A stretch of DNA of 64,000 nt from an uncultured Acidobacteriota bacterium (GCA_963816725.1 CAWFMC010000009.1:30073-94072); one strand, 5' to 3'; positions 10,535 to 15,922 are shown, counted from the first letter of the stretch. Notes: generated from the sequence alone by a model not told the origin. Made by a program: numbers and translations.

Positions 10535-11818
10535 CTATGAGACAGCGGCAAGCGGCAGCGAGACCGTCGCGACCGTGCCGCCGCCGGGGCGGTCGGTGAG
10601 CGCGATCCGTCCACCCTGCTGCTCGACCAGTCGCTTGACGATCGCCAGCCCCAGACCCGTGCCTTCCGCCCGGGTCGTCACGAACGGCTCGAACAGCCGT
10701 TCGCGAACGCTCTGCGGCAGCCCCGGTCCGCGGTCGCGGACCGCCATGTGGCACGAACCGTCTTCGACCATCACCTCGATCTCGACGCCCCCGTCAGCTG
10801 ATGCCTGGCAGGCGTTCAGCGCCAGGTTCAGGAGGGTCGCTCGCAGCGCGTCAGGATCGCCAACCGCGCGGACCGGCCCACCGTGCACCGCAATCGCCGG
10901 TCCGCGCTGACCCATTGCCGCCGCGGCACTGGCGGCAGCGTCGCGGGCCAGTGCCAGCGCGTCGACGGGACGGACGAGCGCCGCGGTGGGCTTGGCGTAT
11001 TGCAGCAGGTCGTTGACCTTGGCATTCAGGCCATCGATCCGCCGGATCATCGTCCGAACGACATCCCGCTCCATGCTCGCCGACGGAAATCGCCCGTTGA
11101 GGATCTCCAGCGATGCACGCAAGCCGGTCAGGGGGTTGCGGACTTCGTGGGCGACCATGGCCGTCAGCTGTCCGAGCTGCAGCAGGGCGGCCTGCTCGCG
11201 GATTTGTGCCTCGGCCTCCTTACGGGCGGTGATGTCGCTGCGAATCGAGAGGTACTGGCGGGGCTTGCCGCTTCCGTCGACGAACGGGACGATGGTGGTG
11301 TCGACCCAGTAGAAGCTCCCGTCTTTCGCCCGGTTGCGGAGCTCGCCGCGCCAGACGCGGCCGTTCGCGATCGTCCGCCACAGATTGCGGATGAACTCCT
11401 TCGAGTGATGACCGGAGTTGACGATGCGGTGGTCCTGACCGAGCAGCTCCTCGCGGCTGAATCTGGAGATGGCGCAGAACTGATCGTTGACGTAGGTGAT
11501 GACGCCGCGCTGATCGGTAATCGCGACGATGGCGGCCTGGTCCAGGGCATAGCGCATCTCGTCCAGCCTGGCCAGCGACTCGGCCATCGCGCGGGTCACC
11601 TGCGCCGCGTCGTGCGCCGCGCGGCAGCGTTTCCAGGCGAGGGCACCGGCGGCCGCGGCGGTCGAGAGCATCACCAGGATCGGCCGCCAGCCGGCTGTCG
11701 ACAGCGCGATGGTCCCGCCGCCGCCCCACACCGCACCGGCCGCCAGCAGCAGCGCCGCACTGAGGCCGACGGCAAGTGGCTCCATCGCCCGTGGCCCCGC
11801 GCGTCGCTCGTACGTCAT
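10535..11818 (-). CDS. membrane PAS-domain sensor histidine kinase
   Basis: Two N-terminal TM helices, a PAS domain (VAITDQRGVITYVNDQFCAISRFSREELLGQDHRIVNSG) and H-box AHEVRNPLTGL. HATPase_c boxes (LLNLALNACQA, DRGPGLP, GTGLGLAIV). Confidence 0.85.
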   Translation of the reverse strand: MTYERRAGPRAMEPLAVGLSAALLLAAGAVWGGGGTIALSTAGWRPILVMLSTAAAAGALAWKRCRAAHDAAQVTRAMAESLARLDEMRYALDQAAIVAITDQRGVITYVNDQFCAISRFSREELLGQDHRIVNSGHHSKEFIRNLWRTIANGRVWRGELRNRAKDGSFYWVDTTIVPFVDGSGKPRQYLSIRSDITARKEAEAQIREQAALLQLGQLTAMVAHEVRNPLTGLRASLEILNGRFPSASMERDVVRTMIRRIDGLNAKVNDLLQYAKPTAALVRPVDALALARDAAASAAAAMGQRGPAIAVHGGPVRAVGDPDALRATLLNLALNACQASADGGVEIEVMVEDGSCHMAVRDRGPGLPQSVRERLFEPFVTTRAEGTGLGLAIVKRLVEQQGGRIALTDRPGGGTVATVSLPLAAVS

Positions 11819-11824
11819 GGCCGC

Positions 11825-14509
11825 CTAGTAGACGATCCGCCGGTTCGGAGGCGCCGCCGCCGGTCGCTCGATGCGAACCCGCAGGTCGGCCGCGAACGCG
11901 CCGGTGTGCTGCACCAGCACCGGATTGATGTCCAGTTCCTGCACTTCGGGTGCGAGGGACAGCAGGGCAGACACGCGCAGCAGGACGTCGCGCAACGCCG
12001 CCTCGTCGGCGGGAGGCGCGCCGCGGAAGCCGCGCAACAGCCGCGCGCCGCGCAGCTCGTTGACCATGTCGGCGGCGTCGACGGTCGTCAAGGGATGTAG
12101 CCGGAACGAGGTGTCCTGCATCAGATCGACGAGCACTCCGCCGGTCCCGCAGGCGATGAGCGGGCCGAACGATGGATCCTGGACGGCGCCGACCAGCATC
12201 TCCACACCGCCCCGGACCATCGCCTGGACCAGGGCCGACGTCATCTCGTCGCCGAACCGTCGCACGAAGTCGTCATACGCCGCCCGGACCTCGTCGTCGT
12301 CCGCGAGGTTCAGCGCGACCGCCCGGCGTTCGGTCTTGTGCAGCAGCGTGGGACCCTGCGCCTTCAGGACCGCCGGGTATCCCACCGCCCGTGCCGCGGC
12401 AACTGCCTCGTCCACGCTCGTGACGACCTGCGCGGCCGGTGCGGCGACCCCGATGGCCTTCATCAAGGCCATGCCTTCGGACGGACGGGTCCATCCGCCG
12501 CCACGGGTCAGCACGGCGTCCACGGTTTCGCGTACGGCACCGGCGTCAATGTCCGGAAGCACAGGCGTGGTGCCGAGCGGCGCCTCGCGCCAGCGTCCGT
12601 AGACCGTGACCCGGGATAAGGCGATTGCGGCCGACTCCGGAAAGGCATAGGAAGGGATGGGCGCGAGCGTCGCGGGCGCGCCTTCGGATCGCATGAACAC
12701 GCCGAGCACCGGTTTGCCCGGGACCGCCGCGGCGCTGGCCGCCATCGCGGCGGCTACCGCCGAGGGATCGGTGACGAGCGGCGGAATGAAGATGGCGATC
12801 ACGCTGTCCACCGACTCGTCGCGCAACAGCACCTCCAGCCCGCGCCGGTAGTGCTCGGGCGGCGCCGAAGCCAGCATGTCGACCGGATTGCTGACGCTGG
12901 CTGCTGCCGGAAGGAAGGACCGTAGCTCGCCGTGTGTGGTCTCGGATAATGCCGGCAGGGCGAGGCCGTTCGCCTCGCACGCGTCGGCGGCGAGAATGCC
13001 CGGACCGCCGGCGTTGGTCAGGATGGCCACTCGCGGTCCCCTCGGCAACGGCTGATGGGCCAGGAGAGACGCGACATCGAACAGCTCTTCGAGCCGCTCG
13101 GTCCGGATCACGCCGGCCTGCCGGAAGAGCGCGTCGACCGCCGTATCGCTCGAGGCGAGGGCGCCGGTATGCGAGGCCGCGGCGCGCGAGCCGGCCTGCG
13201 ATCGTCCGGCCTTCACCGCGACGATGGGCTTGCGCCGGCCGATGCGCCGTGCGATCTCACTGAACTTCTTCGGATTGCCGAAGCTCTCCAGGTAGAGCAG
13301 GATGACGTTGGTCCGGGGATCGTCGGCCCAGTACTGGAGCAGATCGTTCCCCGAGACGTCCGCCTTGTTCCCGACCGAGACGAAGCTCGAGATGCCGATG
13401 CCGAGCCGGCGCGCGTAGTCCAGGATCGCCAACCCGAGCGCGCCGCTCTGGGTCGACATGGCGACGGTGCCCGCTGGTGGATAGACCGGCGAAAAGGTCG
13501 CGTTCAGCTGCACCGCGGGATCGGTGTTCAAGAGGCCCATGCAATTGGGGCCGATCAACCGGCACCCGGCGGCGCGGACCTTCTCCAGCAGTTCACGCTC
13601 ACGCTCCCGCCCGGCCGCATCGCACTCGCCGAAGCCGGCGCTGATCACGCAGATCGCCGGGACGCCTTTGGCAATGCAGTCGTCGACCGCCGCGAGCACC
13701 TGGGCGGCGGGGACTACGACGACCGCCAGGTCGACCGCATCGGGGATATCAGCCACACGGGCGAACGCCCGGCGGCTGCCGATCTCCGCCGCGCTCGGGT
13801 GCACCGGGATGACCGTGCCCCTGAAGCCGGCCCCGAGCAGGTTGTAGAAGATTTCGGATCCGATGCGCCCGCGCTCCCGGTTCGCGCCGATGACCGCGAC
13901 CACCCGCGGCGTGAAGAACGCTTTCATCGACTCGCTGGCGGCCCGCTGCGAGCGCGCCGCGGCGCGGCGTTCGTAGTGATCCGTCACGTCGAGCGAGAGC
14001 ACGACGTGGCAGAGACCATCCTGCTGGCTGATGGTGCACGACAGGCCGCACTCACGGAACAGCTCCAGCATCCGGACGTTGTCGCCAATCACGTGCGCGT
14101 CGAAATGGGTCACGCCCTCGGCGACCGCGAGGCGAGCGAGCTGTTCGAGCAGCCGCGTGCCGATGCCGTGGCCCTGGACGGCGTCGCTGACGGCGAATCC
14201 GACTTCCGCCCGCGTTCGCACAGCCGGCAGGCGGTAATAGCCGGCGAAGCCGACGATCCGGCGACCCGCCTCCGCAATCAGCGACGTCCCATCCGTCTCC
14301 ACCAGCCCACGCATCCGCGCGGGCGTAAGCGCGGGATACCCGAGGAAGCGGAAGTAGCGGCTGGTCGGGGAGAGGCCCTCGAAGAACTTGATGAGCGCGT
14401 CGATGTCCGCGGCGCCGGCCTGGCGCAGGCAGACCGTCGACCCGTCACGAACCACGACGTCTACGGGACTGACAACGACGTGCACGACTGGCTCCCTCTC
14501 ACTGCGCAT
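11825..14509 (-). CDS. PatA-like bifunctional protein: N-terminal GNAT acetyltransferase plus NDP-forming acyl-CoA synthetase (CoA-binding, ATP-grasp) domains
   Basis: GNAT motif (VSDAVQGHGIGTRLLEQLARLA), CoA-binding region (PRVVAVIGANRERGRIGSEIF, VISAGFGE) and ATP-grasp region (VGYPAVLKAQGPTLLHKTERRAV). ATG 14509 (TTG 14515 in the track) overlaps the 3' end of the upstream regulator. A 6-nt gap separates it from the downstream kinase. Confidence 0.85.
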   Translation of the reverse strand: MRSEREPVVHVVVSPVDVVVRDGSTVCLRQAGAADIDALIKFFEGLSPTSRYFRFLGYPALTPARMRGLVETDGTSLIAEAGRRIVGFAGYYRLPAVRTRAEVGFAVSDAVQGHGIGTRLLEQLARLAVAEGVTHFDAHVIGDNVRMLELFRECGLSCTISQQDGLCHVVLSLDVTDHYERRAAARSQRAASESMKAFFTPRVVAVIGANRERGRIGSEIFYNLLGAGFRGTVIPVHPSAAEIGSRRAFARVADIPDAVDLAVVVVPAAQVLAAVDDCIAKGVPAICVISAGFGECDAAGRERERELLEKVRAAGCRLIGPNCMGLLNTDPAVQLNATFSPVYPPAGTVAMSTQSGALGLAILDYARRLGIGISSFVSVGNKADVSGNDLLQYWADDPRTNVILLYLESFGNPKKFSEIARRIGRRKPIVAVKAGRSQAGSRAAASHTGALASSDTAVDALFRQAGVIRTERLEELFDVASLLAHQPLPRGPRVAILTNAGGPGILAADACEANGLALPALSETTHGELRSFLPAAASVSNPVDMLASAPPEHYRRGLEVLLRDESVDSVIAIFIPPLVTDPSAVAAAMAASAAAVPGKPVLGVFMRSEGAPATLAPIPSYAFPESAAIALSRVTVYGRWREAPLGTTPVLPDIDAGAVRETVDAVLTRGGGWTRPSEGMALMKAIGVAAPAAQVVTSVDEAVAAARAVGYPAVLKAQGPTLLHKTERRAVALNLADDDEVRAAYDDFVRRFGDEMTSALVQAMVRGGVEMLVGAVQDPSFGPLIACGTGGVLVDLMQDTSFRLHPLTTVDAADMVNELRGARLLRGFRGAPPADEAALRDVLLRVSALLSLAPEVQELDINPVLVQHTGAFAADLRVRIERPAAAPPNRRIVY

Positions 14510-15860: not shown

Positions 15861-15907
15861 GTGAGAAACGCCTTTTTGTGCGGCCCTGAGTGGCCGATGA
15901 GGTGAGT

Positions 15908-15922
15908 GCACCCGAAGTGCCG
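15908..15922 (-). promoter_or_regulatory. candidate sigma-54 -24/-12 promoter in front of the activator gene
   Basis: The minus strand reads CGGCAC-ttcgg-GTGC(A), 48 nt upstream of ATG 15860. Confidence 0.45.

Follow-up and report, generated by a model that had tools for sequence, protein, structure and literature searches.

A GNAT-tagged ADP-forming acyl-CoA synthetase, probably active, in a sigma-54-type two-component operon of an uncultured Acidobacteriota bacterium

Introduction

Why should an acyl-CoA-dependent enzyme be encoded between the regulator and the kinase of a two-component system? The question is raised by a 64,000-nucleotide (nt) stretch of DNA from an uncultured Acidobacteriota bacterium (GCA_963816725.1, CAWFMC010000009.1:30073-94072; here called the window, with positions counted from its first letter). 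Between positions 10,535 and 15,922 its minus strand carries genes for an NtrC-type sigma-54 enhancer-binding response regulator, a fusion of a GNAT acetyltransferase domain with an NDP-forming acyl-CoA synthetase (ACS), and a PAS-domain histidine kinase. An initial annotation, made from the sequence alone, took the fusion protein for a PatA-type protein acetyltransferase wedged into the operon, that would couple acetyl-CoA or energy status to acetylation of universal stress proteins (USPs) or of the regulator, and to sigma-54 transcription.

A GNAT domain placed ahead of the synthetase-like region is the order found in the type II GNATs (PMC8556138). In both type I and type II enzymes the synthetase-like domain is described as inactive for lack of the catalytic histidine (PMC8556138, PMC3195501). 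We have asked whether the window enzyme belongs with these proteins. The comparisons below indicate that it is better described as a GNAT-tagged ADP-forming acyl-CoA synthetase (ACD), probably active, than as a PatA-type acetyltransferase. With moderate confidence we regard the locus as a sigma-54-dependent operon with an ACD-GNAT cargo, forming part of a conserved response of acidobacteria to oxygen limitation or a reduced redox state.

The synthetase module has the catalytic motifs of an ACD

The order of Pfam domains in the enzyme is Acetyltransf_1 (residues 69-155; residue numbers follow the 894-amino acid (aa) version of the protein), CoA_binding_2, Succ_CoA_lig, Ligase_CoA_2 and ATP-grasp_5. 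The GNAT-first, type II PatA-like order that had been noted initially is therefore confirmed. When the whole enzyme was compared with proteins of solved structure the highest scores were obtained with Nmar_0206 (8wzu, 442 bits), 9y43 (380 bits), 2csu (355 bits) and the alpha subunit of ACD1 (4xyl, 332 bits). PatZ (9it0) scored 312 bits, below all four of these active ADP-forming CoA ligases. The enzyme aligns end to end with residues 6-696 of 8wzu, with the single-chain subdomain order 1-2-5-4-3 (from Pfam) made up of CoA-binding, flavodoxin-like, ligase-CoA and ATP-grasp parts. Individual domains of a predicted structure of the enzyme were matched by Foldseek to 8wzu, 4xym and 2csu.

In Nmar_0206 the phospho-histidines of the ACD mechanism are H256 on the swinging loop and H535 in the ATP-grasp domain (PMC11494057). 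Both have an aligned counterpart in the window enzyme, i.e. His447 and His724 (Table 1). We assembled a set of 88 related loci from Acidobacteriota, Actinomycetota, Chloroflexota and metagenome-assembled genomes (MAGs) of Deltaproteobacteria/Desulfobacteraceae, encoding enzymes 44-87% identical to that of the window. All of them (88/88) retain the motifs SHT[G/A], D/E-x-N-P and HK[T/S], the last of these as HKA in a single locus. YLES is also kept, but this belonged to the pattern used in the search. From its sequence the ACD module thus appears to be catalytically competent. Both phospho-histidines, the glutamate of YLE and ELDxNP are common to the window enzyme and to the ACDs of Ca. Korarchaeum (ACD1), Pyrococcus, Nmar_0206 and Nmar_1309, but none of those has a GNAT domain.

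Comparison with Pat and PatA enzymes

Escherichia coli PatZ and Salmonella Pat (type I) are constructed from the same four blocks (CoA-binding, ligase-CoA, ATP-grasp and GNAT) in the reverse order. PatZ is 31% identical to the window enzyme across the ACS-like region, but has LNTTAGM in place of AASHTGALAS and so is without the swinging-loop histidine. It has been described as unable to make acetyl-CoA (PMC3195501), and its dead synthetase-like domain still binds acetyl-CoA, ATP and phosphate.

SlPatA of Streptomyces lividans (type II) shares with the window enzyme an N-terminal GNAT domain followed by a region of ~700 aa resembling NDP-forming acyl-CoA synthetases. We judged its sequence through its ortholog in Streptomyces sp. 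BHT-5-2 (L092) only; the GNAT domain of L092 matches SlPatA GNAT structure 4NXY at E 5e-101 and is nearly identical over 181 aligned residues, which identifies it as the SlPatA ortholog. L092 has GHAVP instead of SHTGA, is without HK[ST] and DxNP, carries a proline-rich insertion and has no USP neighbours. The same genome encodes a second paralog (L093) with intact motifs and with USP genes directly upstream, and this, not L092, is its best match to the window enzyme. An intact-motif paralog in Kitasatospora lies within an island of USP, PNPOx and CBS genes. In the homolog from Tsukamurella tyrosinosolvens (L089, 4653-8586) the entire phospho-histidine loop is deleted and the other two motifs are gone, so that by its sequence this protein is a clean example of a degenerate, Pat-type clade. 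There the start of the fusion gene is overlapped by a gene for the deacetylase AcuC.

The loss of motifs in the Pat-type proteins, together with the presence of an intact paralog in a single Streptomyces genome, divides the GNAT-first fusions into two clades, with the window enzyme in the intact one. Identity with a classical Pat or PatA was rejected, since the phospho-histidine pair and the remaining ACD motifs have been kept and the enzyme is not orthologous to SlPatA; the PatA-type assignment of the initial annotation is revised accordingly. A full-text search of the literature found no paper on intact-motif GNAT-ACD fusions, or on their link to USPs or sigma-54.

We also considered a deacetylase as a partner of the module and rejected it. 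A sirtuin gene is present 6-9 kb away in three loci only, and AcuC adjoins only the degenerate Tsukamurella protein, which leaves the intact clade without a consistent partner. One of the three is a SIR2-family deacetylase gene at 16203-16670 of L083, 6.5 kb downstream of the enzyme gene; the other sirtuin homologs were in L074 and L023 alone.

The GNAT domain

The GNAT domain looks functional as an acetyltransferase, as judged from its conserved residues and predicted fold. Glu102 aligns by BLASTP with the glutamate of the DAEF motif of E. coli PatZ (residue 809, by counting along the alignment numbering), and is invariant in alignments A1 and A3. The sequence QGHGIG (residues 112-117) fits the acetyl-CoA motif A pattern Q/R-x-x-G-x-G/A and is conserved in all the related loci that have a GNAT domain. 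The best match of solved structure is the GNAT domain of SlPatA (4nxy; E 7e-18, ~31% identity), on which the AlphaFold model of the domain superimposes with a TM-score of 0.82-0.87 and a root mean square deviation of 2.0-2.2 Å. Among the SlPatA GNAT entries matched, 4U5Y shows the domain bound to the C-terminal domain of an AMP-forming Acs. The GNAT domain of MtPat (4ava) matches at E 1e-10; the NCBIfam Pat model gives E 5e-19, a score that lies under its cut-off.

Organization of the operon

The window has a G+C content of ~67%, and the three minus-strand open reading frames (ORFs) within 10535-15922 have a strong GC bias at the third codon position. The domains initially named for them were confirmed with Pfam. 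The features of the locus are collected in Table 1.

Table 1. Coordinates of the operon, its sequence elements and the USP genes of the window
Feature	Position	Strand	Remarks
NtrC-type sigma-54 enhancer-binding response regulator	14499-15860	-	453 aa; REC, Sigma54_activat, AAA_lid_14, HTH_8 (Pfam, NCBIfam)
GNAT and ADP-forming acyl-CoA synthetase (ACD) fusion	11825-14485	-	886 aa from GTG 14485; 894 aa from ATG 14509
GNAT domain of enzyme	~13976-14476	-	
ACD module of enzyme	~11870-13927	-	
Glu102 codon	14204-14206	-	aligns with Glu of PatZ DAEF motif (BLASTP)
His447 codon	13169-13171	-	AASHTGALAS, swinging-loop phospho-His by alignment with H256 of Nmar_0206
His724 codon	12338-12340	-	LLHKTE, ATP-grasp phospho-His by alignment with H535 of Nmar_0206
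Membrane-anchored PAS histidine kinase	10535-11818	-	427 aa; PAS, HisKA, HATPase_c (Pfam)
Upstream activator site 1	15994-16007	-	GCGAACGTTTTCGC; distal member of tandem pair ~20 bp apart; aligns in 8 promoter regions
Upstream activator site 2	15974-15987	-	GGGGATTATTTCGC; the regulator encoded in the operon is proposed to bind here; conserved in alignment A2
Sigma-54-type promoter	15907-15922	-	CGGCACTTCGGGTGCA; GG-N10-GC; 47 nt upstream of regulator ATG
Sigma-54-like element	10383-10398	-	CGGTACGGCGCTTGCG; 49 nt upstream of USP gene 9837-10334
USP, ATP-binding type	9837-10334	-	G-2x-G-9x-G-S motif; directly downstream of operon; Pfam Usp E 4e-35, hidden Markov model E 2e-55
USP	17504-17983	+	
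USP	25128-25622	-	
USP	25911-26378	+	
USP	26613-27104	+	

The packing is indeed tight. The enzyme stop codon (TAG, 11825-11827) is separated from the kinase ATG at 11818 by exactly the 6 nt first reported. The reported overlap of 11 nt between regulator and enzyme is not upheld; it arose because the upstream ATG at 14509 had been chosen as the start. Translation of the enzyme most likely begins at GTG 14485, judging from the sequence context. This GTG lies 13 nt beyond the regulator stop codon (TGA, 14499-14501) and is preceded at 6 nt by the Shine-Dalgarno sequence GAGGGAG, it agrees with the 886-aa database gene call P0001, and similarity to most of the relatives begins at residues 16-17 and never relies on the first eight residues. 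The three genes very probably form one transcript. A consensus scan of 9400-17600 found no sigma-70-like promoter or intrinsic terminator, which neither supports nor excludes internal promoters.

A search for repeats over 9600-16100 gave nothing relevant to the operon. A 10-nt direct repeat (TCATAGTTCC) is present at 10517-10540 (minus strand) as two copies 4 nt apart, with the TAG stop codon of the kinase inside the first. Just upstream of the operon are two minus-strand genes (16067-16807 and 16874-17230) without a Pfam match. The former has a homolog (45% identity) immediately ahead of the enzyme gene in L006, and the latter has one (59%) in L012.

A conserved promoter and upstream activator sites

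The operon is preceded by a sigma-54-type promoter and a tandem pair of putative activator sites. We aligned eight upstream regions (alignment A2), comprising those of the window, L001, L083, L084, L085, L086, L087 and L088. The promoter sequence CGGCA[C/T]-N6-TGCA is invariant in 8/8, and ~50-100 nt upstream of it are two tandem GGGGAAnTTTTCCC-like sites ~20 bp apart. Within the window GGGRAWYNTTTCSS is matched exactly just once, at site 2. The conserved promoter precedes the regulator gene in the window, L001, L083, L084 and L086, and the enzyme gene in L085, L087 and L088. Thus it stands ahead of whichever of the two comes first, so that in these eight loci the enzyme would always be transcribed from that promoter.

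The upstream-site motif occurs 27 times in 407 kb of acidobacterial loci, and in 17 of the 27 cases a sigma-54-like element follows 20-200 nt downstream; by chance this would be expected for ~11%, as estimated from the density of sites in the window. From the position and conservation of the tandem GGGGAAnTTTTCCC sites we infer that the regulator binds there, and the operon is probably autoregulated. In L084 (~5370-5480) imperfect 7-nt tandem repeats (GGGATTC / GGGACTC / GGGGTTC) were observed upstream of the activator sites.

The sensor kinase and the regulator

After two hydrophobic segments at its N-terminus the kinase carries a single PAS domain (~11219-11533), followed by the H-box histidine His224. 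The PAS domain matches PAS-A of MmoS (3ewk) with 169.8 bits and a domain E of 2e-49 over 111 aligned residues; by eye, most positions in the printed alignment are identical or similar. The E of 1.5e-61 for the whole sequence of 3ewk takes in a second, weaker stretch to PAS-B of MmoS. The next matches are to Aer (E 6e-20) and PAS1 of NifL (E 3e-14). MmoS, Aer and NifL PAS1 are FAD-binding redox sensors, and by sequence similarity the PAS domain of the kinase is of this MmoS/NifL/Aer class. MmoS of Methylococcus capsulatus, which regulates methane monooxygenase, has its PAS domains in tandem, whereas the window kinase has one PAS, two transmembrane segments and a different regulon.

Kinases of the MmoS-like FAD-PAS class are found in nine other loci (L082, L001, L015, L035, L013, L002, L022, L012 and L003), while FixL-like heme-PAS kinases lie in or beside the module in L083, L084, L001, L087, L077, L017, L019 and L021. 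The PAS domains of these latter kinases match FixL (1d06) at E 2e-37, and an H-D-x-Y segment aligns with what we take to be the proximal-histidine region of FixL.

The regulator has a phospho-acceptor aspartate (Asp53, in LVLLDYRLPD), a Walker A motif and a C-terminal HTH_8 domain. Its orthologs in the related loci are 64-85% identical, and one lies within 3 kb of the enzyme gene in 13/37 acidobacterial loci. The best NCBIfam matches, AtoC for the regulator and AtoS for the kinase, were far under their cut-offs and were rejected as assignments of either protein.

Gene order in related loci

The order regulator, enzyme, kinase recurs with near-identical spacing in L001 (enzyme 68% identical), and L082 (87% identical) is consistent with it, with the upstream gene cut by the end of the contig. 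The order is kinase, regulator, enzyme in L083 (72%) and L084 (71%), and regulator, enzyme in L086, while in L085, L087 and L088 the enzyme gene alone stands behind the same promoter. In L002, L012, L013, L015, L022, L035, L077 and L087 the genes are within 1-3 kb in other orders or on other strands, except that the regulator of L013 is ~9 kb away and only the kinase was found in L015. Thus the triad of the initial annotation is matched in the closest cases and differs in the other relatives, and the central position of the enzyme gene is specific to a lineage. L001 suggests how it arose, since it has kinases of both classes, a FixL-like one upstream and a FAD-PAS one downstream of the regulator-enzyme pair. 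The window order looks like the remainder after loss of the upstream FixL-like kinase.

In L017, L019 and L021 an ACD without a GNAT domain is found beside a USP, a receiver protein, an orthologous regulator and a heme-PAS kinase. The conserved association is therefore with the synthetase module no less than with the acetyltransferase. Recurrent neighbours of the module include genes for P-type ATPases, cbb3 oxidase (ccoNOQP/fixGHIS), zinc alcohol dehydrogenase and pyruvate phosphate dikinase, and also BON, HSP20/GroEL and PNPOx-like proteins and flavodoxin. In L085 (8674-14670) the enzyme gene abuts a complete cbb3 cluster (FixH, FixG, FixP, COX1/FixO, FixS and a P-type ATPase); the cbb3-type cytochrome oxidase is a high-affinity oxidase used at low oxygen.

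The arrangement resembles the regulons of FixLJ, DevRS/DosT (DosR), OsdKR of Streptomyces and Lxa of Burkholderia, where a redox- or oxygen-responsive kinase likewise stands over an island of USP and energy-metabolism genes. Those systems have a FixJ/NarL-type output, whereas that of the window is a sigma-54 enhancer-binding protein. Relatives of the window do use FixL-type heme-PAS kinases, but the window kinase itself has an MmoS-type FAD-PAS domain. In USP-rich oxygen-responsive islands the ATP-yielding acetate step is provided by Pta-AckA; in the window module it would be provided by the ACD.

Universal stress proteins and the cyclic nucleotide-binding kinase

The genomic link between the enzyme family, USP genes and sigma-54 control that had been proposed is real, and is conserved across loci. 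In 21/90 loci a USP gene is found no more than 500 nt from the enzyme gene, i.e. in 13/37 from Acidobacteriota and 8/53 others. Up to 1.5 kb from the enzyme gene there are 0.16 USP genes per kb, three times the density beyond 4 kb (0.049 per kb). Adjacency is seen in four phyla, including some where no sigma-54 activator was found nearby.

Six USP genes with sigma-54 promoters had been reported in the window. We find five USP domains (Table 1), and sigma-54-like -24/-12 elements ~45-70 nt upstream of the start in four of the five genes. The element preceding the USP gene next to the operon has an orthologous counterpart in L082 (GGGTACGGCGATTGCG, 46 nt upstream of its USP), and similar sites occur before USPs in L017, L019, L021, L077, L083 and L084. 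More generally, many USP genes in the acidobacterial loci have sigma-54-like elements 20-50 nt upstream. The genes at 25128-25622 (-) and 25911-26378 (+) form a divergent pair with a 290-nt intergenic region, in which sigma-54-like elements face each way (GGGTACAACTGTTGCG for the minus-strand gene, TGGAACGCGCATTGCG for the plus-strand gene). An ORF at 24645-26378 (+) that hides this pair was rejected as spurious.

A cAMP-regulated Pat is known from mycobacteria (Nambi et al. 2010, as cited in PMC8556138). MtPat and MsPat have a GNAT domain related to that of the window enzyme and a link between Pat and USP, which in the window is one of genomic adjacency; the window enzyme differs from the cAMP-regulated Pat in having no cyclic nucleotide monophosphate (cNMP)-binding domain. 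The mycobacterial enzyme reportedly acetylates a USP. The cNMP-binding kinase gene noted initially at 1180-2595 is present, but it is 8 kb away and is not conserved with the module, so that its role in the circuit falls and the cAMP analogy is unsupported here. The kinase, a receiver-fused flavoprotein and LOG were all rejected as parts of the system for lack of conservation with the enzyme module. The kinase, with its N-terminal cNMP-binding domain, is encoded in a plus-strand pair (1180-4250) and overlaps the next gene by 4 nt. In the partner a response-regulator receiver domain is joined to a pyridine nucleotide-disulphide oxidoreductase resembling thioredoxin reductase, which is unusual as the output of a two-component system.

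Other genes in the window

A mobile element lies ~35 kb from the operon at 50700-52768 (+), where a gene for a tyrosine recombinase of the phage-integrase family overlaps by 4 nt that for an IS91-type Y2 transposase, which carries a zinc-binding N-terminal domain. The genes at 53002-55803 (+) and 56753-59377 (-) each encode a large Ser/Thr protein kinase with PD40 (WD40-like beta-propeller) repeats fused to it, and a third Ser/Thr kinase at 29307-30734 is followed by a tetratricopeptide repeat protein.

Discussion

The favoured reading of the locus, as a low-oxygen or redox-responsive sigma-54 operon with an ACD-GNAT cargo, suggests the following scheme. The membrane-anchored kinase would sense redox state through its cytoplasmic FAD-type PAS domain, and when oxygen is low or the redox state is reduced it would phosphorylate Asp53 of the NtrC-type activator. 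The activator would then bind the tandem GGGGAAnTTTTCCC sites and open the CGGCAC-N6-TGCA promoter of its own operon, and probably also activate the USP genes nearby through their sigma-54 promoters. The main cargo would be the ACD, catalyzing acetyl-CoA + ADP + Pi <-> acetate + CoA + ATP, probably in the direction of substrate-level ATP formation when respiration is limited. At the same time the GNAT domain would acetylate protein targets. The most plausible candidates are AMP-forming acyl-CoA synthetases, because the closest GNAT relatives are known to act on substrates of this class and because their inactivation would stop an ATP-wasting futile cycle between acetate and acetyl-CoA. The co-localized USPs are second candidates, on the grounds of genomic adjacency and the mycobacterial precedent.

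A number of observations weigh against this reading. The sequence following His724 is HKTERRAV in the subclade of the window, and not HK(S/T)DxGGV. The score against the NCBIfam acetate-CoA ligase model TIGR02717 is 490.8 for a cut-off of 567.15, and that against NF045493 is 507 for a cut-off of 1300; with these equivalog scores under cut-off, membership of the superfamily is clear but the assignment of an acyl substrate is not. The AlphaFold model of the enzyme is only moderate (predicted local distance difference test 71.5, predicted TM-score 0.59) and its global TM-score is low to both PatZ and the ACDs, so we interpret the per-domain matches only, and not the placement of the GNAT domain or communication between domains. 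There is no Acs gene and no deacetylase gene in the window, and deacetylases are rarely found near the module. In the regulator the loop that contacts sigma-54 reads GAFTDA (15189-15206, minus strand) instead of the canonical and near-universal GAFTGA. This is also so in eight orthologs (L001, L002, L012, L013, L022, L035, L083 and L084), with GAFTGA in four others, so it looks like a tolerated lineage variant. Over the whole window the sigma-54 consensus is not enriched (11 occurrences, compared with 10.5 in shuffled sequence), and nor is the upstream-site motif, with one exact match and one with a single mismatch. The case for the promoter and the sites consequently rests on position and on conservation between loci. 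Moreover the USP promoters of the window have no clear copy of the upstream-site motif, and so are not assignable to this activator on that basis.

An alternative that we consider unlikely is that the protein is after all a Pat/PatA-like lysine acetyltransferase in which the synthetase-like part serves only to sense acetyl-CoA or ATP. Its place in the operon would then reflect acetylation of the regulator, the kinase or the USPs, as a metabolic feedback on sigma-54 transcription. The GNAT-first order with a following ACS-like region is as in the type II GNATs, the closest GNAT relatives of solved structure are SlPatA and MtPat, and the ligands bound by the dead domain of PatZ mean that binding motifs by themselves are no proof of turnover. 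USP adjacency in phyla whose loci showed no sigma-54 activator close by would also fit, as would the precedent of the cAMP-regulated mycobacterial Pat, where acetylation of a USP is said to occur. Yet the phospho-histidine pair and loop are invariant in four phyla, and have been lost in every characterized or deacetylase-linked Pat-type protein that we examined; where one Streptomyces genome has both paralogs, only the intact type has USP neighbours. The GNAT-less ACDs keep the USP, regulator and kinase context, and the order of regulator, enzyme and kinase is not conserved.

If the synthetase is active it might instead run in the acyl-CoA-forming direction, spending ATP on acetate or another short-chain acid either for assimilation or to feed the fused GNAT domain while the cellular acyl-CoA pool is low, in a self-feeding acylation device. 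ACD reactions are reversible, and Nmar_0206 and Nmar_1309 work in the direction of CoA-ester formation. Fusion of a producer and a consumer of CoA esters is consistent with channelling, and AtoS/AtoC, the closest NCBIfam models albeit under their cut-offs, belong to an acetoacetate/short-chain acid system. We judge this a live but unlikely alternative, since the neighbours are low-oxygen and stress genes with none for uptake or catabolism of organic acids, and spending ATP on activation under energy limitation would be less economical; the GNAT-less orthologs in the same context also argue for a function of the synthetase in its own right. A juxtaposition without meaning, in which a metabolic gene landed between regulator and kinase by rearrangement in a region where USPs are merely abundant, might be suggested by the varied gene order around the enzyme among the relatives and by the IS91-type transposase and integrase of the window. 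Such an accident is disfavoured by the conservation data and seems to us extremely improbable. It would not account for orthologous regulators within 3 kb in over a third of the acidobacterial loci (13/37), for the same promoter and upstream sites at the head of the transcription unit of the enzyme in eight loci, or for USP adjacency recurring in four phyla.

The window locus and its 88 relatives thus represent a widespread sister clade of the Pat-type fusions in which every ACD catalytic motif is intact. It keeps the company of USPs, oxygen and redox sensor kinases, sigma-54 control and high-affinity oxidase genes, rather than the deacetylases and Acs of classical Pat. The closest relatives are MAGs of Vicinamibacterales, which we take to be a group among the most abundant yet least studied of soil bacteria, and to our knowledge almost no regulation has been mapped in Acidobacteriota. 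The locus offers a defined and testable regulon, with a sensor class, an activator, a binding-site motif, a promoter and targets. A broader proposal, which we put forward tentatively as a possibility, is that the large GNAT-ACS clade is truly bifunctional, a working ACD and a lysine acetyltransferase in one chain that in Vicinamibacteria-like soil bacteria is switched on as a unit, together with USPs, by an oxygen- or redox-responsive sigma-54 system of which it would be the principal target, upon hypoxic or energy-limited persistence. If both modules work, the fusion would physically and directly couple the conservation of energy from acetyl-CoA to the acetylation of proteins under limitation of oxygen or energy.

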